Program-made: the position numbers and the translations under genes
Part shown: positions 17,076-28,769 of the stretch, one piece after another
Layout: each line of letters starts with the position of its first letter
How positions within the stretch are numbered: the first letter of the stretch is position 1
The notes under the pieces: generated by a model
What the model was told of the DNA's origin: nothing
The model's input: the letters and a program-made list of their open reading frames with translations, nothing else
The model's database searches: none
From: a virus
DNA length: 64,000 bases
Reading direction: 5' to 3' (one strand)
IMG/VR virus record: IMGVR_UViG_3300018079_000002
Span: 3,768-67,767 of that record

Positions 17076-17867
17076 TTATCTGCCTGGACGTTGAGCCTGA
17101 CCCTTGGCCAACCCGGCCTGAATCTTTTGCATTGAGGTCATCTGGTCCCGCGCAGTCGTCTGGGTGACGTGCTGCGTGCGCTTACCCGTGCCGGGAGGCG
17201 TGCCACCACCAGGAGGCGTTTCGCTCTCGAACAAACGGCCAAACTCCTGCTGGCCTTTCATTTCGCTGACCAGCTCTTTGATGGTCATGGGCGCACCGGT
17301 GGCACCAAAGCGAATGTTACCTTCCGCGTCCACTACCTGGACGTTCAGGTTGCCGTCCTTCTCATCAACCTTGACCTGGTTACGCACGAACGGCAGCAAC
17401 AGCTTGGGCACGCCTTTTAATTCGGCGATGGCCGTGGTGGCGGTGGTGTCCACCAGGTGCGCATAGAGCTGCGTGGTCAGCCCTTTGATGCGGGTGTCGC
17501 GTGCAGTCAGCTCCTTGCCATGGGCTTCCTGCAGCGCCTTCTTGATGTTCTCCAGCTCCTTGGCACCTTTCTTGTCGCCGCCAAGCTTGGCTTCTTCCAG
17601 CTTGGACGTGACACTGGCGAGAATTTCCTCGGGGGTTGCACCGTATTCGGCCAACCCGGACAAGTCCACTACCTTGGTCTTGTAATTCTTCGCTTCGGTC
17701 CTTGCGGCCTTGAGCGAACCATTCAAGCCAAGGATCGTCTTTACAGACGCCTTCACAATGGGGTCATCCCTGAGGGTGTGCTTGTCTCCGGCTTGGGCGT
17801 AAAACCCACGAAAATCTTCCGGGACTGCGTTAATATCCGTCACTTCTGGGGCGAAGGCGAATTCCAT
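17076..17867 (-). CDS. Capsid scaffolding protein
   Basis: 263 aa coiled coil; DINAVPEDFRGFY, GVPKLLLP, FGRLFESE, GGGTPPG; between minor head gene and MCP. Confidence 0.85.
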   Translation of the reverse strand: MEFAFAPEVTDINAVPEDFRGFYAQAGDKHTLRDDPIVKASVKTILGLNGSLKAARTEAKNYKTKVVDLSGLAEYGATPEEILASVTSKLEEAKLGGDKKGAKELENIKKALQEAHGKELTARDTRIKGLTTQLYAHLVDTTATTAIAELKGVPKLLLPFVRNQVKVDEKDGNLNVQVVDAEGNIRFGATGAPMTIKELVSEMKGQQEFGRLFESETPPGGGTPPGTGKRTQHVTQTTARDQMTSMQKIQAGLAKGQAQRPGR

Positions 17868-17877
17868 ATCTTATTGC

Positions 17878-18174
17878 TCACTTTCTTGTTTCGTTTTGTG
17901 ACTCACTCACATTCAACGAACCAGGCTCACCCTGGTCTCGTCGTTTCTCAAGAATGGTTGGTTCCATATCCTGAGTAAAGCTTAATTTGATGCGATATTT
18001 CCTCTCACATACCACGCAAATCGGAATGCCACCCAGGCACTCTTCCTTATGGTAGATGCCCAGCAGGAAGGGGCGTGTCTGTGGGTGCCCACAGGTGGCG
18101 CAACGGACGATAGGCCCAGGGGTGGTTGGTGGGCTCCAGCGCAAACTTAAATCGACGAAGACCGTTATGGCCAT
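17878..18174 (-). CDS. Small zinc-finger protein
   Basis: CATC...CVVC motifs, 98 aa. Confidence 0.55.
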   Translation of the reverse strand: MAITVFVDLSLRWSPPTTPGPIVRCATCGHPQTRPFLLGIYHKEECLGGIPICVVCERKYRIKLSFTQDMEPTILEKRRDQGEPGSLNVSESQNETRK

Positions 18175-18785
18175 GGTCCTGCCTCGTTAGTTAGCGTGAT
18201 TATACCACGGAAGAAAGCAGCATCATTGGTGGTGGGCGGCACCAGCACCTGGTAGATGCGAAGCCAGTTCACGAAGTCCGTGCTCTGCTCGATTGCTACG
18301 AAAGTATTGGTCATGCCCGTCACCTGACTGATCTGCATTTCCATCTGCAACGGTGGTCGATTGGTGAACAGCGGTCCAGCCGGTTCACTTTCCAGGCCAG
18401 CCCAATTGTAGGCCGTGAGGGTAAAGTAATTCGTCACACCCCTGGGCACGATCATGCAGGCATTGCTGATGGCCGCACCCGGCAGGTCCACACGCTGTGT
18501 ATACATCCCACTTTCCACGCCTTGATAGAGGCGATAACCCGCCAGGTCCGGTTCGGAGTTAGTGCGCCACTGGAAGCAGATGCGGTAGGTGCCCTTCCAC
18601 ACATTGGACTGCGCGAATAAGTTTGACGCTGACAAGAAAAAGAAGAACCCTACTCGCAGCAGGTCACAGCGTGTAAGCCACCCCAGCCGTCGTCGATTAA
18701 GCTTGGGCGACACGTCCAACCCGGTAAGGCTGACATGCTCACTGGGCACCTTGTCCTGGTAACGAGTAGGGTGGTGAGATTTCAT
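18165..18785 (-). CDS. Secreted FN3 protein with C-terminal xSTDxxNW...FFR module
   Basis: Hydrophobic GFFFFLSASNLFAQ; FQWRTNSEPDLAGYRLYQGVESGMY; YFTLTAYNWAGLES; IEQSTDFVNWL...AAFFRG. Confidence 0.75.
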   Translation of the reverse strand: MKSHHPTRYQDKVPSEHVSLTGLDVSPKLNRRRLGWLTRCDLLRVGFFFFLSASNLFAQSNVWKGTYRICFQWRTNSEPDLAGYRLYQGVESGMYTQRVDLPGAAISNACMIVPRGVTNYFTLTAYNWAGLESEPAGPLFTNRPPLQMEMQISQVTGMTNTFVAIEQSTDFVNWLRIYQVLVPPTTNDAAFFRGIITLTNEAGPWP

Positions 18786-20035
18786 TCAAAGTCCTCTGGG
18801 TCTAAGCCTGCGCGCATGAACGCAGTCGGGTTGGTTTCGGCCAGTTGTTCTAGGTTCAATTCGTTACCGGCCTTGTCCACGAATTGATCAAGCTTCAAGC
18901 CACCACGGCGAAACAGTGCACCCTTGGCGTTACCCAGCACATCGTCCTGGAAGGCTGCAGGCTGGCGTTTGAGCCACTGTTCGTAATTTACATTGGCGGG
19001 CACCGAGCCCACCATGTCCTTGGTCCACTGGTTACGCGCCTTGCGCATTAGTTCGTTACGCTCACCCGCGTCCAGATCCACCCACTTGGCACCGGCCTTG
19101 GTCTTGGCCAGCTCCCGGAAGTTTACTTCGTTGCGGTTGCCAAGCATTGTGGGCCGTTCGCCAATCGCTTTGCCGATGCCTTCGCCGTCCAGGTAAGCTA
19201 CCATCATACTGCGACAATTCGGATGTGCCGGTGGCCGAGCAGAGAGAGGCTCTAACTTCGTCATCCCCCTTGGTAACTCTCGGTGGGCTAACGGGGATAC
19301 TCGTCCGTCTCTCGCTCGACACACCGCACTTGTTCGCCCATCCAACGTGGCTACCCACTTCAGGCCAGCGACAATGTCGGAGTTTTCGGTCCATACGGAC
19401 TCCCGAGCTGCCGTGCTGACATGGTTTACGGCGGTGCGAACAATAGTCTCTGCGTTGCGACGGGTTACAGCGAGCAACCCATCAGCGAAATGATTAGCTT
19501 TGGTGCCAGCGATGCGCTTGACCATCTGGTCCACCGTCTCGCCCTGGACGATACCGAGCTGGAGTGCGTTGACCAGCCGTGCCTGATCCGTGACCCGCAG
19601 TTCATCGAACCACTGGCCCAGGGTGGACCCACCTGCAAAAGGTTTTGCGACCAGTTCTTGTAAGCGTTCGATGGGCACCGCGTTGAACTTCAGCTCAATG
19701 GGCAGTGCGCCACGTATCAGTTTCAGCTCCACGTCTGCCTCCAGGCGCGAAAGGCCGCGCATGCTGCCTCCGAGCTCGGTCTTCACCTGGGCAATCAGCT
19801 CCTTGCGCGTATCACGAACAGAGGCAAGCAGCTCACGAATGCGATTGATGGCCAGGTTGTTGCGCGCCTTGCCAGCGACAGGAGCCAACCGTTCACGTAG
19901 TTTCGCGGTTAGCTCCTTGTCGGCCTGCTCCATCAGGCGTATCAACCTGCGGACTTCTCCAGCAGCCAATCGGCGCACTTGTATCTGGTGGCGCAGGGTT
20001 GCATCCAGCAATTCTTCGTTGGCAGTTCGTGGCAT
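18782..20035 (-). CDS. Minor head / head morphogenesis protein (MuF, SPP1 gp7-like)
   Basis: 417 aa; AETIVRTAVNH, WVATLDGRTSAVCRARDG, PPAHPNCRS. Confidence 0.93.
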   Translation of the reverse strand: MPRTANEELLDATLRHQIQVRRLAAGEVRRLIRLMEQADKELTAKLRERLAPVAGKARNNLAINRIRELLASVRDTRKELIAQVKTELGGSMRGLSRLEADVELKLIRGALPIELKFNAVPIERLQELVAKPFAGGSTLGQWFDELRVTDQARLVNALQLGIVQGETVDQMVKRIAGTKANHFADGLLAVTRRNAETIVRTAVNHVSTAARESVWTENSDIVAGLKWVATLDGRTSAVCRARDGRVSPLAHRELPRGMTKLEPLSARPPAHPNCRSMMVAYLDGEGIGKAIGERPTMLGNRNEVNFRELAKTKAGAKWVDLDAGERNELMRKARNQWTKDMVGSVPANVNYEQWLKRQPAAFQDDVLGNAKGALFRRGGLKLDQFVDKAGNELNLEQLAETNPTAFMRAGLDPEDFE

Positions 20036-20211
20036 TATTGTCCCGATCTTTGGCGGTAGTTCTTCGCTTGGTCCGGGTCCACACGGCGCATGCGCTTCAT
20101 CAGCTCATCGACACCGGGTGGCTTCTCGATCTTCGGGTGCTGTGGTTCGCTACCGTCGCCGGATTGTGGGCGAGGCATCAACGGCCTGGGTTTCTGTTTT
20201 TGTTCTGGCAT
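20035..20211 (-). CDS. ubact: Ubiquitin-like protein UBact (Pup-analogous modifier), phage-encoded
   Basis: 58 aa from ATG 20211: MPEQKQKPRPLMPRPQSGDGSEPQHPKIEKPPGVDELMKRMRRVDPDQAKNYRQRSGQ. Pro/Gly-rich disordered N-half; conserved-type C-half (L/M)KRMRRVDPDQAxxYRQR[S/T]G[Q/E]; TAATG overlap with the MuF gene. Confidence 0.88.
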   Translation of the reverse strand: MPEQKQKPRPLMPRPQSGDGSEPQHPKIEKPPGVDELMKRMRRVDPDQAKNYRQRSGQ

Positions 20212-20215
20212 AAAA

Positions 20216-20380
20216 TTAAACTTCGTCTGCGCGTTCGGTTGCCTCACTGCAAAGCAAGTGCGCTTTCAGGTGCAATGCACCTATCACTGAGGCATACGAA
20301 ATGTCATACTCACTGCGAAAGCGTTCTACCAATTTGTCGAGCTCGTCCGCAAAATGATCAATCTGTTGTCCTTCGTCCAT
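20216..20380 (-). CDS. Small helical hypothetical protein (54 aa)
   Basis: Manual translation MDEGQQIDHFADELDKLVERFRSEYDISYASVIGALHLKAHLLCSEATERADEV; fills the gap immediately upstream of UBact. Confidence 0.65.
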   Translation of the reverse strand: MDEGQQIDHFADELDKLVERFRSEYDISYASVIGALHLKAHLLCSEATERADEV

Positions 20381-20416
20381 AAGTGTTTTCAGTTCCTACT
20401 CGGTTCTTACTGTTCC

Positions 20417-20698
20417 TTATGGCTTCAGCTCAGACGGGTGCAGCCAGTAGTTGCCTGGAGCCAGTTGGTGCGACTTGTGGACGCACGAGCTCCGATGCTC
20501 CTTCTGCTGACCATACTGATCACGACGGTCTGGGTCCAGCGTAACGAACACCAGGTTGATGGGGCCAACGTAGGTGTTTGGATCATCCAGGTCCAACTCC
20601 TTGCGTCCCCACGACGCGGTAATGAGCGCATCGTGTTGCTTGCTGTGTTCGTCCACGTAGATCACGTGGGCACCGTCTTCGAGTATGATGTTTCGCAT
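20417..20698 (-). CDS. Hypothetical protein
   Basis: 93 aa, coupled to upstream ORF. Confidence 0.6.
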   Translation of the reverse strand: MRNIILEDGAHVIYVDEHSKQHDALITASWGRKELDLDDPNTYVGPINLVFVTLDPDRRDQYGQQKEHRSSCVHKSHQLAPGNYWLHPSELKP

Positions 20699-20916
20699 TA
20701 TGTTCCTTCTTGTTCCTTCTCACGCTGGCGGTTTAACATATCGTGATGTGCCTGGGCAAACAGTCCCATGGCTTGATAGAATCCACCATCGTAAGAAATT
20801 CTCTTCTGGACAAATCCATCGTCCGTCTTCCAGGTTACGGCCAGACCAAACCCGTCGAAGTGCTCACCCAGCTCCAGGCAGGCTCGTTTCAAAACTTGTT
20901 CTTGTGCTGGTGTCAT
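20698..20916 (-). CDS. Hypothetical protein
   Basis: 72 aa from MTPAQEQ (ATGA overlap); LGEHFDGFGLAVTW. Confidence 0.6.
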   Translation of the reverse strand: MTPAQEQVLKRACLELGEHFDGFGLAVTWKTDDGFVQKRISYDGGFYQAMGLFAQAHHDMLNRQREKEQEGT

Positions 20917-21383
20917 TGCTGCACTTCGTTGATTGAGTAATCGCCCTTGTGCTGACGCCATTCCAGCCAGGCTGGGTCTGGCCTGATCAGGTGGTGCTGG
21001 AGCGAGTGCAGCAGCCGGTTCGTAATCATGCGCGCTGCCGGGTGGGGCATGAACACCACGGGTTTGATCTTCATCTGCTTCAGCACTTCCATGTCCTTGG
21101 CGAGCAGCCGGTGCACCGAGTCACGCGCCTGATTACCACACACCAGGTAGCAATCCCAATCACGACGAAGGATGGCACGTCGCAGAAACAGCAGGTCCGG
21201 CGGTAGTCTAACCTTCGCACAAGGCGCGCACTTGGAGCTGCTGTTCGTCACCCACAGCTCGTGCTGACCGCAGATGAAGTAAAGCTTCTTACCGGTGTGG
21301 TTACGCGGGTTGATGCGGAAGACGTTCGGTGCCTCGGTGCGGGCTGGGTCCCACATGTTCTGGAGTATGGCAAGAATAGTCAT
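20913..21383 (-). CDS. Divergent uracil-DNA-glycosylase-superfamily protein
   Basis: Ordered motifs ILAILQNMW / NHTGKKL / WVTNS / PPDLLFL / LVCGNQA / FMPHPAAR match the UDG-fold layout (motif A strand, [ST]G.RL, TN, G..A, HPS). Confidence 0.6.
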   Translation of the reverse strand: MTILAILQNMWDPARTEAPNVFRINPRNHTGKKLYFICGQHELWVTNSSSKCAPCAKVRLPPDLLFLRRAILRRDWDCYLVCGNQARDSVHRLLAKDMEVLKQMKIKPVVFMPHPAARMITNRLLHSLQHHLIRPDPAWLEWRQHKGDYSINEVQQ

Positions 21384-21635
21384 TTATGCCTCGCGAGTTC
21401 GAGCCAGGTCACGAACCATTGGGCGTCGTGCCAGCTCTGATAGGCTGCACCCTGGTGGTGGCCAATCGGCGGTTTCGTCGATGTAGCAGGCATAGAAGCC
21501 TGGATCACCGAGTGAAGGAGGCACGAAGTGCGGTCCTGGCCTACCACAATTGGGGCAGAGTCTTTCAACCTGCCTCCCGAAGAAAGCTTTGCGTTCATTC
21601 TTTTGGTGGTTGGTTAGTTTCAACAGCTCCTCCAC
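21384..21635 (-). CDS. Small Cys-motif protein
   Basis: CPNCGRPGPHFVPPSLGDPGFYAC. Confidence 0.5.
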   Translation of the reverse strand: MEELLKLTNHQKNERKAFFGRQVERLCPNCGRPGPHFVPPSLGDPGFYACYIDETADWPPPGCSLSELARRPMVRDLARTREA

Positions 21636-21865
21636 ACGCCAGCTTCGAGGAAGCCATGGAACACTGTGCGCCCGTCGTTGATCAGTATGGACGGCGAGAC
21701 CGTAATGGTGCCGTCCGGGTGTTCTTCAACGTCGTGCGCTTCGAGCGAGCCCATATGGTTTCCGGGTGGGTGCGCATACCAGATACCGTTCTTACCTTTG
21801 CCATACTCGCCTTCTTTGAGAAGAAGCTGGCCTTCTTGATTGGGCTGAACACGATTTCCTTTCAT
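21620..21865 (-). CDS. Small protein with DUF6527-like C-terminus
   Basis: 81 aa; HDVEEHPDGTITVSPSIL...FHGFLEAGVWRSC. Confidence 0.5.
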   Translation of the reverse strand: MKGNRVQPNQEGQLLLKEGEYGKGKNGIWYAHPPGNHMGSLEAHDVEEHPDGTITVSPSILINDGRTVFHGFLEAGVWRSC

Positions 21866-22053
21866 AGGTTATCCACGGTTGGGGGTTCAATGATCTTACC
21901 GTCTTCGTCGCACTGATTGACTTTGCGTATGATACCCAGCGGAGTCTTTTCGTGGAAGATCTCCCTCGCCTGGGCTTCGCACATTACACCTTCCGCCATC
22001 ACGTGCTGAATTGCGCGTGTCGGTGGGGTGTAATATTCAATCAGAAAGTTCAT
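21862..22053 (-). CDS. Hypothetical protein
   Basis: 63 aa coupled to portal stop. Confidence 0.55.
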   Translation of the reverse strand: MNFLIEYYTPPTRAIQHVMAEGVMCEAQAREIFHEKTPLGIIRKVNQCDEDGKIIEPPTVDNL

Positions 22054-23498
22054 GCACCTTCAGCCGGTGGTTGTTGCTGCGCACCTGGGTCCATGTCCTG
22101 CATGGTCTTGATCATCTGCGCTTCTTCCTGCTTCAGCTCGTCCACGTCATCTTCCGGGTCGTATTCGTCATGCAAGATACCACGGCGTTTCAACTCATCG
22201 ATGTAGGCCGTGCGGCTGATGTCGCGCCGATCGCGTGCCTTGTCCAGCGTGCTCAGGTCCGCCGGGTCAATGGTCTCAGGTCCGAATTCGCGATTGATCT
22301 TTACGGTGCCACCGGCTTCGACCTGCATCCAGGCCGCAGTGAATTCCAGCGCCTTGTTGACCGCATCCTCGAAACGCACCGTTACATCCTGCAAGGGCGA
22401 AGTCGCCTCAGCCGAATCCAGGGCACGTGCGGTCGCCGTCTCCGTGCCTGAACGCTTGCGGAGAAACTCAGCGCCATACTGTGCCATCTGGGTCTCCAGC
22501 GCCTCCATATCCTTCTGACCTGCTTCCAGTGCTGCACCGGTGTGCTCCACATAATAAAATTCGCTGTCTGCATTCGAGGAGAACAACCACTTGTTGGGGC
22601 CAACCACAATATCCTTTTCGTCCTGCACCCCACTGCCTGCCAGGATGGGAAAGCGAGCCACCGTTAAGCAGTTGCGCTGGTCCGAAGAGCTCTGCCAATG
22701 ACTGATGTTCAAGTCAGCCAGGTCCGACAATGGTGGCTTGCCCAGGAAGGGGCACTCACGCGCAGCGTAAAAAGTGACCAGTGGAATAAAGTCCAGGCCG
22801 TATTGATATTCGTCGATCTTGACCCACTCCACCTTGCCACGCTGACTGCGCATGTATTCGTAAACGGTGACTTGTCCTGGTTCGATCACCCGAATCCATT
22901 TGCGCTTCACTTCGGCGAAACCGTCCATGACCGTGTGTTCTTCCTGGATGCGCACATGCACCAGCGTCTCCACCCCGTTGATGGTCTCAGTGCGGGCGAA
23001 GATGATGTTCTCCGGCGGTATGTTGATCCAGTAAGGCCGCAGCTTGTCCTTGCGGTCATCCTCCAGGGTGCGTGGCTGGCCGTCTAGCCGTGGCTGCACA
23101 CGAGGAAACTCGACCAGCACATGGGAGAAAGACTTGGCCAGGCCGTCACGAAACCAGCCACGTGCGAACACGTTCAGCTCGTTGCCTTGCAGGTCCACGT
23201 CCTCCAGCAACTCTTCGATCTCCTTCGGCACATCATCGTTGAGCTGAATGGGGTCACTGAAGGGACGGCCCACCCAGGACTCCAGCGTCAGCTCCGTCAT
23301 GTTGAGCAGCGTGGCGCTGGCCAGCCGTGCCGCATAGATATCGTCCTTCTCGAACTGGTGCTGGGGCAACAGGGCTTGGCCTGCTGCTCGCATCGCTTCG
23401 GTGCCGCCTAGCAGAGCATTCATTTTCTGCCAGCGAGGAAGCATGGTATTATACGCCTCGCTCGTTACGGATGGGTCATCGGTTTTCTGTTTTGGCAT
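22050..23498 (-). CDS. Portal protein (DUF4055-type)
   Basis: 482 aa after TerL; LLGGTEAMRAAG..LLP, PPLSDLADLNISHWQSSSD, ETATARALD. Confidence 0.93.
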   Translation of the reverse strand: MPKQKTDDPSVTSEAYNTMLPRWQKMNALLGGTEAMRAAGQALLPQHQFEKDDIYAARLASATLLNMTELTLESWVGRPFSDPIQLNDDVPKEIEELLEDVDLQGNELNVFARGWFRDGLAKSFSHVLVEFPRVQPRLDGQPRTLEDDRKDKLRPYWINIPPENIIFARTETINGVETLVHVRIQEEHTVMDGFAEVKRKWIRVIEPGQVTVYEYMRSQRGKVEWVKIDEYQYGLDFIPLVTFYAARECPFLGKPPLSDLADLNISHWQSSSDQRNCLTVARFPILAGSGVQDEKDIVVGPNKWLFSSNADSEFYYVEHTGAALEAGQKDMEALETQMAQYGAEFLRKRSGTETATARALDSAEATSPLQDVTVRFEDAVNKALEFTAAWMQVEAGGTVKINREFGPETIDPADLSTLDKARDRRDISRTAYIDELKRRGILHDEYDPEDDVDELKQEEAQMIKTMQDMDPGAQQQPPAEGA

Positions 23499-23500
23499 AA

Positions 23501-25033
23501 CTACATGTCACGTTGTTTTACGGTCTTGTTCTGTTGGCGCACACGGTAACGTGCTTCGTCAGCGATGTGGTCTTCGCTTTCGGAGTCCACGTCATCCAGA
23601 TCATCATCGTCACGAGGCAACACTGGAATTGTTCTTAGAAATTGCTGGCAGCGGCCACCGCAGATAAACAGGCCGGGAGTTTCTCGCTTGGAGCTGCCTT
23701 TGGGGAGGAAACTTTGGGATAGCAGCAGACGGAGCTGTTCCCAACCTTGTTTGCGCGAACCGGGACTCTTATCACTTGGGTCCCAGTGGACGCCCAATTT
23801 AGCCATGTCACCAGCAACAGATTTTCCAGGTTCATAATCGTCAAAGATGCTACTATCTGCCGGCCCACGTCGCACCTTGCCAGACAAGCCCCATTCTTCT
23901 TCGCGGTCGAGGATGCCTTGGGCAATGTCCTTGGACTGCATGCGTATGCCTTCGTTGGAACGGCCACTCCAGCCATACCACTCAGCAATGCGAATCAAGT
24001 CGCCACGCACGTCGCCAATCAGACGGCCGTCCCACAGGATGGGGTCTTCGCCATTGGACTCAGCCCACCACCCCACCGAGAACGGCGCTGACTGACCATG
24101 ATCGTAGGAACGATTTAGTTTCCAGCTCCGGGGTATCAAGCGCAGTGGAAAGTCCGGCAGCACGTGCGTCCTGGCCCACCACACGTCATCAAACATACCG
24201 CCAGCGACGATGTTCCAATCACCTTCCAGCCAGGCCGCAAGCTGCGACTTGTTCTGTGCCGCAGCACGAAGGCGAATAATGTAATCAGGATTCGCGCGCA
24301 GCAGGATTTGATTCTCGGACAGCCTGCCATGGATGGCCACCCTGGGCGGTTCCACGTTACCCTCGATGTCCATGCTGTTCTTAATGACTGGACCAACCAC
24401 CTTGCCAGGCAGTATCGGCAAACGCCAGCGCGATTTGACCCAGTTATGACCCACCCCATACGGGTTCGTTGTTGAGCGCACCTTGATGGGCAGGCCCACC
24501 GCCGTCGAGCGCGCACAGGAGAACATCGACTTGTAGCACTCGTCACTGGGCCAGGTGGTCAGCTCTTCCCAGCCAATCCACGGATAGGCATGTCCGTGGT
24601 AGCTCCAGTAATCCGCCTTCTTCATGAAGTGACGGAAGAATAATATTTCGCCCTTGGGCCAGCGCCAAAAGTTCTTCGCCTCATTGAACTTTGCGTCTGG
24701 CCAGATCTTAGGAAACCACTTCTTGGACTTGTCGATCACGTCCTGGAGCTCCGGGTAGGTGCGACGAAAGAGCACCCCACGCCAGTCACTACCCCAACCC
24801 TGGTTGACGTGCTGGGCGAAGTCCATCAGCAGCGCATCGGTCTTACCTGGACCACGGGTGCCTGCATAGAGGCATTCAAACACCGGACACTGCAGGAATG
24901 CTTCCTGGCTACCGGGTTGTGGAGCCCAGGTGACGGCAATGCGCCTGCCTTCGGGCATCTTGACGTAAGGACGAATGCCTTCCTCTGAGTCTTCCCACTC
25001 AAGCACGCCTGGACTGGTTTGGGTCTCGACCAT
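23501..25033 (-). CDS. terL: Terminase large subunit
   Basis: 510 aa; Walker A LYAGTRGPGKT, Walker B WIGWEELT, STTNPYG, nuclease DYGQ-type YDHGQS and EDHIADEARY. Confidence 0.96.
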   Translation of the reverse strand: MVETQTSPGVLEWEDSEEGIRPYVKMPEGRRIAVTWAPQPGSQEAFLQCPVFECLYAGTRGPGKTDALLMDFAQHVNQGWGSDWRGVLFRRTYPELQDVIDKSKKWFPKIWPDAKFNEAKNFWRWPKGEILFFRHFMKKADYWSYHGHAYPWIGWEELTTWPSDECYKSMFSCARSTAVGLPIKVRSTTNPYGVGHNWVKSRWRLPILPGKVVGPVIKNSMDIEGNVEPPRVAIHGRLSENQILLRANPDYIIRLRAAAQNKSQLAAWLEGDWNIVAGGMFDDVWWARTHVLPDFPLRLIPRSWKLNRSYDHGQSAPFSVGWWAESNGEDPILWDGRLIGDVRGDLIRIAEWYGWSGRSNEGIRMQSKDIAQGILDREEEWGLSGKVRRGPADSSIFDDYEPGKSVAGDMAKLGVHWDPSDKSPGSRKQGWEQLRLLLSQSFLPKGSSKRETPGLFICGGRCQQFLRTIPVLPRDDDDLDDVDSESEDHIADEARYRVRQQNKTVKQRDM

Positions 25034-27680: not shown

Positions 27681-28769
27681 TTAGTCAGTAGGCGTGTTAT
27701 CGATCTTGAGCCGGTAGAACGCCTTGCTGTAGCGCGTTAAGTCCTCGAACTGCAGCTCCAGCCCTTCCGGCAGCTCGGTGCGCATCACCGTGGTCCAGGT
27801 CACTAGGTCGCGACTGCGCTGCACCAGCACCTTGCGGCTGGCCACCCCGTAATTCAGCCGCACGTTAGGCAGGCCGTTGGGTCTGGCCGGGTCCGGCTCA
27901 AAGCGTATGGGACAATCCTCCGGTGCACAGCGCCGTCCGTTCCTGGCAAAGGACTGGTAGCCACCCCAATAGAAGTCAATGCCGTGCCCGTTGATAATGC
28001 GGTTGAATTCTTCGCCATTGATCAGTGGCAATTCACCGTTGGTCCCCCTGGGCAGGAAGGCATTGTAGGTAATCACCGGCCTGCCGTTGCGATGGGTGCC
28101 ACGCAGGTGCCACAGCATCAGGTCCGCAGGCACCGTTGGTTGTTCGCCACTAAGCCACATGGGCTCCATCAGCATCATGGGGGACGAGGCAGTATCCGTT
28201 TCGTTCGTTTCCACGTCACAATCCTCGCCGCACTCTGGGTCTGAATCGGCTGGCCAGGTTTCCTCCCAGCAATACTCGATGCCACTACCCGAATACGAAG
28301 CAGCCGCATCGTCCGCATTGTTCAATGAGTATACCCCAAACCCAAACTCGTCCGGTGGTGCATTAGTGTTGGCCGGAGCAGGTGGAGTGGGGCCAAAGTT
28401 CTTCTGGCAGAACCGGACGATCTTACAACTGACCACCCCGCCCACTACGATGATCACAATGGCCACGATCAGTGGACCACTGCGCACTTCCGCCTTGGCT
28501 TTAGGTGGGGGTGTCAGTCCAATGCCCAGCAGGGAACAGGCCAGCACCAGCGCCACCAGCTTGTTGCGCGTATCCTTATGCAGAACGAACAACCACAGCA
28601 CCGCTATTGCCGAGAATAAGCCCCAGAAGTATCGGTGCACGGTGCCCGAGCTGGCCAGCACACAGAGCAGCGTCAGTGCCCAGGTGAATCCAATCGCCTT
28701 ATACGGGTGCATCCTGACCCATCCGTCGAATCGTTTTATTGCGTTCATGTTTTTCTTTTGGTTGACCAT
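27681..28769 (-). CDS. Membrane/secreted protein with C-terminal xSxDLxxW...FYR module
   Basis: Several hydrophobic segments in the N-terminal 120 aa, Pro/acidic linker, C-terminal VLVQRSRDLVTWTTV...SKAFYRLKI. Confidence 0.75.
   Translation of the reverse strand: MVNQKKNMNAIKRFDGWVRMHPYKAIGFTWALTLLCVLASSGTVHRYFWGLFSAIAVLWLFVLHKDTRNKLVALVLACSLLGIGLTPPPKAKAEVRSGPLIVAIVIIVVGGVVSCKIVRFCQKNFGPTPPAPANTNAPPDEFGFGVYSLNNADDAAASYSGSGIEYCWEETWPADSDPECGEDCDVETNETDTASSPMMLMEPMWLSGEQPTVPADLMLWHLRGTHRNGRPVITYNAFLPRGTNGELPLINGEEFNRIINGHGIDFYWGGYQSFARNGRRCAPEDCPIRFEPDPARPNGLPNVRLNYGVASRKVLVQRSRDLVTWTTVMRTELPEGLELQFEDLTRYSKAFYRLKIDNTPTD

Follow-up and report, generated by a model that had tools for sequence, protein, structure and literature searches.

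In Actinobacteria, the small disordered tag Pup, which ends in Gly-Gln or Gly-Glu, is deamidated by Dop, ligated to lysine by PafA and read by Mpa together with the 20S proteasome. In the solved complexes, it is the C-terminal half of Pup that docks on the ligase. This system (Pup, Dop, PafA, Mpa and PrcAB) is the working model for UBact, a small tag with which some bacteria would mark proteins for a proteasome and which to our knowledge is known solely from comparative genomics. The partners of cellular UBact are homologous to the enzymes of the Pup system, but the tags themselves have no detectable sequence similarity, and UBact ends in R[ST]G[QE] while Pup ends in GG[QE]. We know of no biochemical demonstration of UBact conjugation, cellular UBact included, and the assignment is made by analogy to Pup.

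A virus with its own copy of a host protein-tagging modifier is known from eukaryotes, for example the viral ubiquitin v-ubi of baculovirus, which depends on the conjugation enzymes of the host. Like the phage gene described below, v-ubi is a virus-borne host modifier that relies on host enzymes, while it differs in its unrelated fold, in the chemistry of the E1-E2-E3 cascade and in the eukaryotic host. On the phage side, inhibitors of host ATP-dependent proteases have been reviewed as a class (PMC13696103). If phage UBact were a decoy, it would share with these inhibitors the shielding of phage proteins from host proteolysis; they are, however, dedicated proteins directed against Lon/FtsH-type proteases, whereas phage UBact is a copy of a degradation tag. 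The searched literature contained no case of a proteasome-directed phage inhibitor and no description of a phage UBact, in line with the original prediction, which knew of none that had been characterized.

Here, we analyze a UBact gene in a stretch of 64,000 nucleotides (the window), which is part of a complete virus record of 69,987 bp with direct terminal repeats. Judged by its sequence, the ORF at 20035-20211 is an intact, true UBact gene. The original prediction described a 58-aa ORF with a Pro/Gly-rich N-terminal half and a C-terminus of the UBact type R[S/T]G[E/Q], and proposed an HMM search. Translation of the minus strand reproduces this ORF and its reported C-terminus, which reads RSGQ and is followed directly by TAA. 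Both curated models are matched far above their cut-offs: the Pfam family PF20513 with 67.4 bits (cut-off 27.8, E = 9e-19, profile positions 2-43 of 43), and the NCBIfam equivalog NF033388 with 67.3 bits (cut-off 35, E = 1e-18, profile positions 3-54 of 54). The length is also that of the family, about 55-60 aa. The N-terminal half is of low complexity and the C-terminal half is conserved, and the end-to-end alignment with cellular UBacts has 26 invariant columns across five sequences. The Pup family (PF05639), on the other hand, is not matched, and a Pfam scan at E values up to 1 returned UBact alone; the phage tag ends in SGQ and not in the GG[EQ] of Pup. A profile search of the PDB gave neither a UBact nor a Pup chain.

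Two other start codons come into question, an in-frame GTG at 20247, which would give 70 aa, and Met12, chosen by a public gene caller, which would give 47 aa (P0003). The ATG at 20211 is favored because it agrees with the alignment to cellular UBacts, which begin with MP[DE]Q.QK. The gene and its surroundings are listed in Table 1.

Table 1. Coordinates of the phage UBact gene and neighboring features in the window.
Feature	Position	Strand	Evidence or remark
Head scaffolding protein gene	17076..17867	-	downstream, same late module; phrog_206 E = 6e-45
MuF-type minor head / head morphogenesis gene	18782..20035	-	417 aa; phrog_241 E = 1e-129; PF04233 Phage_Mu_F
UBact gene	20035..20211 (stop included)	-	58 aa + stop; PF20513, NF033388
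Small accessory gene island between portal and MuF	20216..22053	-	roughly 2 kb; ORF calls
Island ORF, 54 aa	20216-20380	-	
Island ORF, 93 aa	20417-20698	-	conserved in 3/3 phages
Island ORF, 87 aa	20698-20961	-	
Island ORF, 156 aa	20913-21383	-	conserved in 3/3 phages
Island ORF, about 83 aa	21384-21635	-	
Island ORF, 81 aa	21620-21865	-	
Island ORF, 63 aa	21862-22053	-	
Portal gene	22050..23498	-	upstream edge of accessory island; phrog_145 E = 2e-135; PF13264 DUF4055; 56% identity to Bordetella CN2-like and Pseudomonas YuA-like portals
Large terminase subunit gene	23501..25033	-	same strand-continuous packaging/head operon; phrog_979

UBact is thus surrounded by terminase, portal, MuF, scaffold and capsid genes, and it is the final gene of the accessory island. 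Apart from the 156-aa and 93-aa genes, the island ORFs are present in one or two of the three phages compared below, and those tested gave no Pfam or PHROG family. A partner captured together with the tag was also sought, but the neighboring small ORFs have no homologue in the cellular UBact loci compared. The TAATG overlap with the MuF gene that had been noted in the original prediction is confirmed in the sequence: the motif is the reverse complement of 20033-20037, so that the UBact stop codon and the MuF ATG share one base. It should be noted that stop/start overlaps of this kind are the rule throughout the operon. A scan for promoters and terminators gave no match near UBact, and the sites found were no more numerous than in shuffled sequence; this and the overlapping neighbor genes are what expression with a late operon would predict.

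The original prediction also stated that the window has no ligase, deamidase or proteasome gene, and this holds for the complete record as well: none of the 69,987 bp gives a match to Pup_ligase (PF03136), Proteasome (PF00227) or AAA (PF00004). No integrase was matched in the record either. The portal protein is 53-57% identical to those of the Bordetella phages CN1, CN2 and FP1 and of Pseudomonas YuA-like phages, and the gene order TerS, TerL, portal, MuF, scaffold, capsid is also the same. By these sequence comparisons, the phage is a distant relative of the YuA/CN2-like siphophages (Mesyanzhinovviridae-like), outside any named genus. In the cultured relative CN2 the island is absent, and a 39-aa ORF alone lies between portal and MuF.

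Two independently assembled contigs of related phages (L002 and L004), whose large terminases show 80-89% identity, carry UBact in the same slot, at an identity of 83% in one and 72% in the other, and each of the three phages thus has the gene between portal and MuF. In L004 the UBact stop overlaps the MuF start as in the window, while in L002 a 76-aa ORF stands between the two. Identities among the phages are 72-83% for UBact, 64-82% for the portal and 66-84% for MuF. The comparison of the window with L004 gives a dN/dS of 0.22 for UBact; with L002, synonymous sites are saturated (pS 0.80) at a pN of 0.19, and of 0.087 in the C-terminal half. With dN/dS at 0.22, or synonymous sites saturated, the gene is thus under purifying selection. 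The last eight residues, NYRQRSGQ, are common to the three copies, and so are K5, Q6, K7, P8, P10, L11, P13, R14 and P15. An invariant N-terminal motif together with the invariant terminal GQ fits, as far as sequence can tell, a tag that is ligated and threaded, and not a truncated blocker.

UBact is very rare among viral contigs. No further viral copy was found in IMG/VR by a single-sequence scan, an alignment scan or a degenerate DNA pattern, scans that may omit the window's own genome or a very near one. The pattern, built on the C-terminal 15 codons, can be considered sensitive since it recovers 70 of 84 UBact loci. A tblastn search of 50,697 GenBank phage records gave no UBact, and a set of 5.8 billion proteins contained no viral UBact beyond the three phage copies. 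In JGI metagenomes, the phage profile retrieved cellular-type copies only, at 66% identity or less, and none of them adjoins phage genes.

Cellular UBact is found in a quite different context. A ligase, proteasome or ATPase gene lies beside the tag in 157 of 161 cellular loci, and the remaining four are contigs shorter than 1.6 kb. With its partner genes absent, the phage therefore has a member of the UBact family but no UBact-proteasome system. The closest cellular loci have Mpa-like, Dop-like, 20S beta and alpha, and PafA-like genes around UBact; in the verrucomicrobial locus L005, for example, the genes are those for a WYL regulator, an Mpa-like ATPase, a Dop-like enzyme, UBact, 20S beta, 20S alpha and a PafA-like enzyme. 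While the cellular tag of Verrucomicrobiota sits with ligase, deamidase, ATPase and proteasome genes, the phage tag is encoded alone.

The proteins themselves share up to 67% identity over the full length. Verrucomicrobiota UBact has the same length as the phage tag, and the two share the N-terminal motif MP[DE]Q.QK.RP and the C-terminal region KRM[RK][RK]VDPDQAK.YRQR[ST]G[QE]. The original prediction, from recall, found the phage tag most like verrucomicrobial UBact. Full-length similarity and a quick IQ-TREE phylogeny with SH-aLRT support only, in which the phage copies cluster with Verrucomicrobiota-type UBact, bear this out; the C-terminal half, however, is equally close to Armatimonadota and verrucomicrobial UBact. 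The captured gene was most likely of the Verrucomicrobiota type, judging from these alignments.

Differences are seen close to the C-terminus, where the three phage copies have NYRQRSGQ and the verrucomicrobial copies RYRQRTGQ. Position -8 is Arg in 151 of the 161 cellular copies (94%) but Asn in all three phages, and position -3 is Thr in 142 (88%) and Ser in 19, with Ser in all three phages. Asn(-8) and Ser(-3) occur together in a single cellular locus among the 161, although each is natural in cellular copies from Armatimonadota. As to the terminal Gln, which according to the original prediction would need Dop-type deamidation, it is present in the phage tag, but it is the norm of the family (142 of 161 cellular copies, 88%; the other 19 have Glu) and no peculiarity of the phage.

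The docking of the phage tag was modeled with the PafA-like enzyme of L005. The complex reached an ipSAE of 0.79 (0.79, 0.79 and 0.78 in the individual runs; best control 0.00), a score that may partly reflect the solved Pup-PafA/Dop complexes and whose pass does not tell which family member binds. In the calibration, the pass mark was reached by 51 of 78 solved complexes and by 2 of 108 mismatched pairs. The pLDDT of the partners is at least 53, and the contact agreement between runs is at least 69%. According to the model, it is through its C-terminal half that phage UBact contacts the verrucomicrobial PafA-like ligase, with residues 33-58 forming the interface, which resembles the docking of Pup in the solved complexes. 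Both positions -8 and -3 lie inside the modeled interface, and the changes found there may just as well be signs of an altered tag with inhibitory action.

Since enzymes of the Dop/PafA type, an ARC/Mpa ATPase and a 20S proteasome are all missing from the phage, the tag can act only through host enzymes, and it is probable that phage UBact does act through the UBact machinery of the host. With the tag present and none of the enzymes that use it, interference with host protein degradation is the most likely role. We tentatively favor the reading that phage UBact is an extra conjugatable tag; the host that the phage infects, the conjugation of the tag and the direction of its effect are what we infer here. 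UBact would have been taken, alone, from a cellular UBact-proteasome locus by an ancestor of this small, probably virulent siphophage clade, and its transcription would now be shared with the genes for packaging and the head in a tightly packed late operon. The product would be of full length and have all that conjugation requires, namely the conserved N-terminal segment, the conserved C-terminal binding region and the terminal Gly-Gln. By analogy to Pup, the terminal Gln would first be deamidated to Glu by a Dop-like enzyme of the host; lysines would then receive the tag from a PafA-like ligase, and its reading would fall to an Mpa-like ATPase together with the 20S core. Additional tag late in infection may in this way direct host proteins into the proteasome, either supplying amino acids for virions or removing host factors.

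No related prophage came up when the portal was searched for in 401 genomes from the phylum of a verrucomicrobial UBact genome; 401 genomes from the phylum of an armatimonadote one gave none either, only one weak partial match. The tetranucleotide correlation is 0.46 with UBact-bearing loci vs 0.45 with a Bordetella phage and is therefore uninformative on the host, and Pfam scans of the secreted and repeat proteins of the phage gave nothing that points to one. The phage was found in two runs only, both of DNA from freshwater sediment, and none of the RNA runs contains it. Lysine avoidance, which would be an expected sign of exposure to tagging, gave no signal in the phage proteome (K 5.6%, R 6.6%), and the head proteins resemble those of CN2. 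Since the phage proteins are not lysine-poor, nothing visible shields them from increased tagging.

This lysine content would suit a decoy or competitor, a reading that we regard as possible but somewhat unlikely, in which abundant free or abnormally handled phage tag occupies the host Dop, PafA or Mpa-like ATPase and blocks tagging or degradation, so that phage proteins otherwise exposed to host tagging are spared. The putatively high expression of the late structural operon points in the same direction, as does the Asn(-8)/Ser(-3) pair, shared by the three phages, almost absent from cellular loci and located in the modeled interface; phage inhibitors of host proteases are, moreover, an established theme (PMC13696103). 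A pure blocker, however, would not need both the Gly-Gln end and the N-terminal segment, which are kept in all three phages, and the natural occurrence of both residues in Armatimonadota weakens the case for an altered tag. In addition, no antiphage role of UBact or of the Pup system was found in the searched literature. A still less probable form of the conflict is that the UBact-proteasome system is itself a phage-host battleground, where the host tags phage proteins for destruction and the variant phage tag, with Asn(-8) and Ser(-3) in its enzyme-binding tail, obstructs Dop, PafA or the ATPase, or else undergoes conjugation yet remains unread.

Another option considered, and an improbable one, is a role in the virion. 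The host ligase might tag head proteins (MuF, scaffold, portal) for timed removal or maturation, or the small basic protein might be packaged with MuF and delivered to the next cell. Scaffold and MuF, with 25 and 22 lysines, are lysine-rich enough to be targets. The original prediction had coupled UBact to head morphogenesis, and the positional part of that claim stands, in the shared TAATG of the window and L004 and the portal-MuF slot of all three phages. The slot is, however, a variable accessory island without which CN2 builds its heads, the ORF that intervenes in L002 separates UBact from MuF, and overlapping codons are general along the operon.

That UBact is a functionless passenger, or cellular DNA joined to the phage contig by an assembly or binning artefact, is very improbable and already largely refuted: transient host fragments do occur in phages and the rarity of viral UBact would suit such an origin, but the synteny common to three independent assemblies rejects a chimera, the overlapping codons tie the gene into the operon, no flanking cellular gene was captured alongside, and UBact is as conserved as portal and MuF, being kept while synonymous sites saturate or at a dN/dS of 0.22 or less.

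If conjugated, the phage tag would leave Ser-Gly-Glu on lysines after trypsin digestion and the verrucomicrobial tag Thr-Gly-Glu, so that phage and host tags would be separable by mass. UBact is also a host marker, which narrows the likely hosts of this phage clade to lineages with a UBact-proteasome locus. A lone and strongly conserved viral tag indicates that manipulating the UBact pathway pays off in infection, and it adds a prokaryotic case to the viruses known to bring along a protein-tagging modifier of their host. These results suggest that bacterial proteasome systems have a part either in the conflict between phage and host or in the recycling of resources while infection proceeds. 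Should the battleground reading prove true, it would mark a first both for an antiviral role of bacterial proteasome tagging and for a viral counter-tag among prokaryotes.

The 58-residue protein on the minus strand has a Pro/Gly-rich N-terminal half and the C-terminus RSGQ, and the original prediction that it is a viral UBact, the Pup-analogous bacterial protein tag, is upheld by the HMM search. It scores 67.4 bits against Pfam UBact (PF20513, gathering score 27.8) and 67.3 bits (vs 35) against the NCBIfam equivalog ubiq_like_UBact (NF033388), with approximately the whole model covered in both cases. No Pup match was obtained in the Pfam scan at E up to 1, and no PHROG family was found for the protein. 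Three starts can be considered for the gene, namely GTG 20247 (70 aa), ATG 20211 (58 aa) and Met12 (47 aa), the last being the choice of the public protein set (P0003). Since the cellular homologues open with the same MP[DE]Q.QK.RP as the 58-aa version, ATG 20211 is taken as the start. The public call drops this conserved N-terminal motif, which means that automatic annotation under-calls the UBact gene. The relevant positions are collected in the table.

Positions of the features discussed, in window coordinates unless a related contig is named
Feature	Position	Strand	Remark
UBact	20035-20211	-	58 residues
UBact, last eight codons	20035-20058		NYRQRSGQ
UBact stop/MuF start	20033-20037		TAATG as reverse complement; one base shared
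Region affected by the P0003 start	20178-20211		
MuF-type head morphogenesis gene	18782-20035	-	phrog_241, E = 1e-129; PF04233
206-aa ORF	18165-18785		directly downstream of MuF
Small genes between portal and UBact	20216-22053		
362-aa ORF	27681-28769		
UBact C-terminus, contig L002	5868-5912		NYRQRSGQ
UBact C-terminus, contig L004	3880-3924		NYRQRSGQ
Homologue of the 206-aa ORF, contig L002	7520-8092		

The window covers bases 3768-67767 of a 69,987-bp IMG/VR record, which carries direct terminal repeats and has a completeness rating of 100%. Nearly all of its genes lie on one strand, the GC content is even (54-58%), and no tRNA genes were found in the sequence. The phage DNA is present in two freshwater sediment metagenome runs, while no RNA run was found to contain it. 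The phage portal shares 53-57% identity with the portals of the Bordetella phages CN1/CN2/FP1 and of Pseudomonas YuA-like siphophages. Around UBact, the gene order is small terminase, large terminase, portal, small ORFs, UBact, MuF, the 206-aa protein and scaffold, followed at some distance in the operon by an SU10-type capsid protein. The 206-aa ORF lacks a Pfam family and has a hydrophobic N-terminal stretch. Its homologue in the corresponding place in L002 is only weak (29% across 72 residues), and its product may be a secreted or decoration protein that evolves rapidly. The absence of ligase, deamidase and proteasome genes, initially noted for the window, holds for the whole record, where the Pup_ligase, Proteasome, AAA and phage integrase models gave no match; each of these searches was positive in one or more named control genomes.

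The gap between portal and MuF comprises ca 2 kb with eight small genes, UBact included, compared to one 39-aa ORF in the cultured relative CN2. Two of these ORFs, of 156 and 93 aa, are common with UBact to all three phages considered here, while the homologue of an 87-aa ORF lies on the other side of UBact, after it, in L002, and the remaining ones occur only in the window and L004. None of the small ORFs has a Pfam or PHROG family. They also have no homologues among the cellular UBact loci compared, which indicates that UBact arrived alone. Among promoter and terminator matches, none close to UBact is conspicuous. The proposed coupling to the head morphogenesis gene stands as far as the overlap with MuF is concerned, but no sign of a shared function was found, and the contact reflects the place of the gene in a densely packed operon.

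L004 (4.5 kb) and L002 (25 kb) are independent assemblies from other sequencing runs, and both carry UBact in the same slot. The overlap of UBact stop and MuF start recurs in L004, whereas in L002 a 76-aa ORF lies between the two genes. Identities to the window for L004 and L002, respectively, are 83% and 72% for UBact, 82% and 64% for the portal, 84% and 66% for MuF, and 89% and 80% for the large terminase. The divergence of UBact is thus in step with the core genes, and the tag therefore predates the split of the three phages. The gene is under purifying selection, with dN/dS = 0.22 between window and L004; the comparison of window and L002 shows saturation at synonymous sites (pS 0.80), against a pN of 0.19 for the whole gene and of 0.087 for its C-terminal half. 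Among the three copies, 37 of the 58 columns are invariant, including the N-terminal K-Q-K-P..P-L.P-R-P and the last ten residues.

No further viral UBact was found in IMG/VR, either by single-sequence and alignment scans or with a degenerate DNA pattern of the C-terminal 15 codons (which recovers 70 of 84 collected UBact loci, 83%), nor by tblastn against 50,697 GenBank phage records; these viral scans may omit the window's own genome or a very near one. A profile of the three phage copies retrieved 766 UBacts from 5.8 billion proteins, with the phage copies at 107-131 bits and all others among the matches listed at 93 bits or below, and the 14 non-phage matches that were read all have the cellular RYRQRTG[QE] ending. 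The best 80 loci of the JGI metagenome scan reach at most 66% identity. A full-text literature search (UBact, Pup/'phage-encoded', pupylation with bacteriophage) returned no report of a viral UBact, the nearest published idea being that mycobacteriophage proteins may escape pupylation by avoiding lysines (PMC13696103).

Cellular UBact genes are found in a different setting. All 81 cellular loci taken from assemblies and species-representative genomes carry a ligase, proteasome or ATPase homologue in their flanks, as do 76 of the best 80 metagenome loci, the four exceptions being contigs of 1.1-1.5 kb that stop just after the tag. Phage packaging genes were found in none of the cellular loci. 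A proteasome subunit gene adjoins UBact, with no ligase homologue in the fetched flanks, in 18/80 metagenome and 5/81 other loci, so that either architectures vary or the ligases lie elsewhere, as in the genomes G002 and G004, whose two Pup_ligase matches are on different contigs or far apart. Six typical Verrucomicrobiota- or Armatimonadota-type UBact-proteasome loci (L007, L034, L052, L042, L069, L016) carry unexpected titles (Klebsiella, Archangium gephyra, Haliangiales, Akkermansia muciniphila, Limnocylindria MAGs), and the copy under the Akkermansia label does not differ from one of Pedosphaera. Such titles probably stem from mis-binning or mislabelling rather than from the true distribution.

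The best cellular matches are overwhelmingly Verrucomicrobiota by label, followed by Armatimonadota. A quick maximum-likelihood tree separates Armatimonadota from a Verrucomicrobiota-type side (SH-aLRT 99), and the phage copies cluster together (support 84) on the latter, near its base and nested in no family, a placement that is soft given the short alignment (58 columns) and the quick search. The suggested resemblance to verrucomicrobial UBact is borne out by the tree and by the N-terminal half (mean identity 0.48 vs 0.33 to Armatimonadota), but not by the C-terminal half, which is equally close to both (0.71 vs 0.73) and has its single best match in a Fimbriimonadaceae copy (0.82). Judged from these identities, the Verrucomicrobiota signal stems from the N-terminal half. 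A portal search of 802 genomes found no prophage relative, and tetranucleotide similarity did not discriminate the host. The host is probably a member of the Verrucomicrobiota; Armatimonadota and another UBact-bearing lineage are both unlikely, and equally so.

We now turn to the tail of the tag. Gln is the usual last residue in the family (142 of 161 cellular copies), and by analogy to Pup it implies that deamidation by a Dop-like enzyme would precede ligation. In the same 161 copies, Arg predominates at position -8 (151 copies, against 6 with Lys, 3 with Gln and 1 with Asn), and position -3 holds either Thr (142) or Ser (19); the phage combination of Asn(-8) with Ser(-3) occurs in a single locus, from Fimbriimonadaceae. 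The closest full-length cellular copy, 67% identical, is that of the verrucomicrobial locus L005, a textbook one, which reads WYL regulator, Mpa-like ATPase (pup_AAA, 406 bits), Dop-like enzyme (Dop model 429 bits vs PafA model 330 bits), UBact, 20S beta, 20S alpha and a second Pup-ligase-family enzyme that the PafA model covers end to end. Solved Pup-ligase complexes exist, while a PDB profile search gave no solved structure for the UBact family, and the phage UBact differs from Pup in having no detectable sequence similarity to it. Modeled with the PafA-like enzyme of L005, the phage tag gave an ipSAE of 0.79 (runs 0.79, 0.79 and 0.78), compared to 0.00 for the best of three controls; in the calibration, the pass mark was reached by 51 of 78 solved complexes and 2 of 108 mismatched pairs. 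The partner pLDDT is at least 53, and at least 69% of contacts agree between runs. The confident interface (residues 33-34, 37-38, 40-42 and 44-58) is the conserved C-terminal half, including both phage-specific positions. The model, which is not proof, supports docking of the phage tag on a PafA-like enzyme.

As to function, the phage tag likely works only through host enzymes. We tentatively favor an extra supply of conjugatable tag, because the ligatable end, the ligase-binding half and the N-terminal segment are all kept under purifying selection. In Pup, the N-terminal segment is needed for threading into the ATPase, not for ligation. The main rival, somewhat less probable, is a competing or variant tag that would obstruct the pathway and protect phage proteins, and two observations fit it better than the extra-tag reading: the two phage-specific substitutions at the interface, and the lack of lysine avoidance in phage proteins. 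The phage proteome is indeed not lysine-poor (K 5.6%, R 6.6% over ca 90 minus-strand ORFs), and the head proteins are similar to those of CN2 in lysine content. The longest lysine-free stretches are of 189 residues, in the 362-aa ORF, and of 142 residues, in the 206-aa ORF. That the tag marks or accompanies phage head proteins, as its place beside MuF might suggest, is improbable. The readings as a neutral passenger gene or as an assembly artefact can largely be set aside.

The phage protein is thus an ordinary member of the UBact family, and the novelty lies in its solitary, conserved place in a virus. In the reading favored here, the phage would supply extra conjugation-competent tag, made late with the virion proteins, which would drive host proteins into the proteasome.
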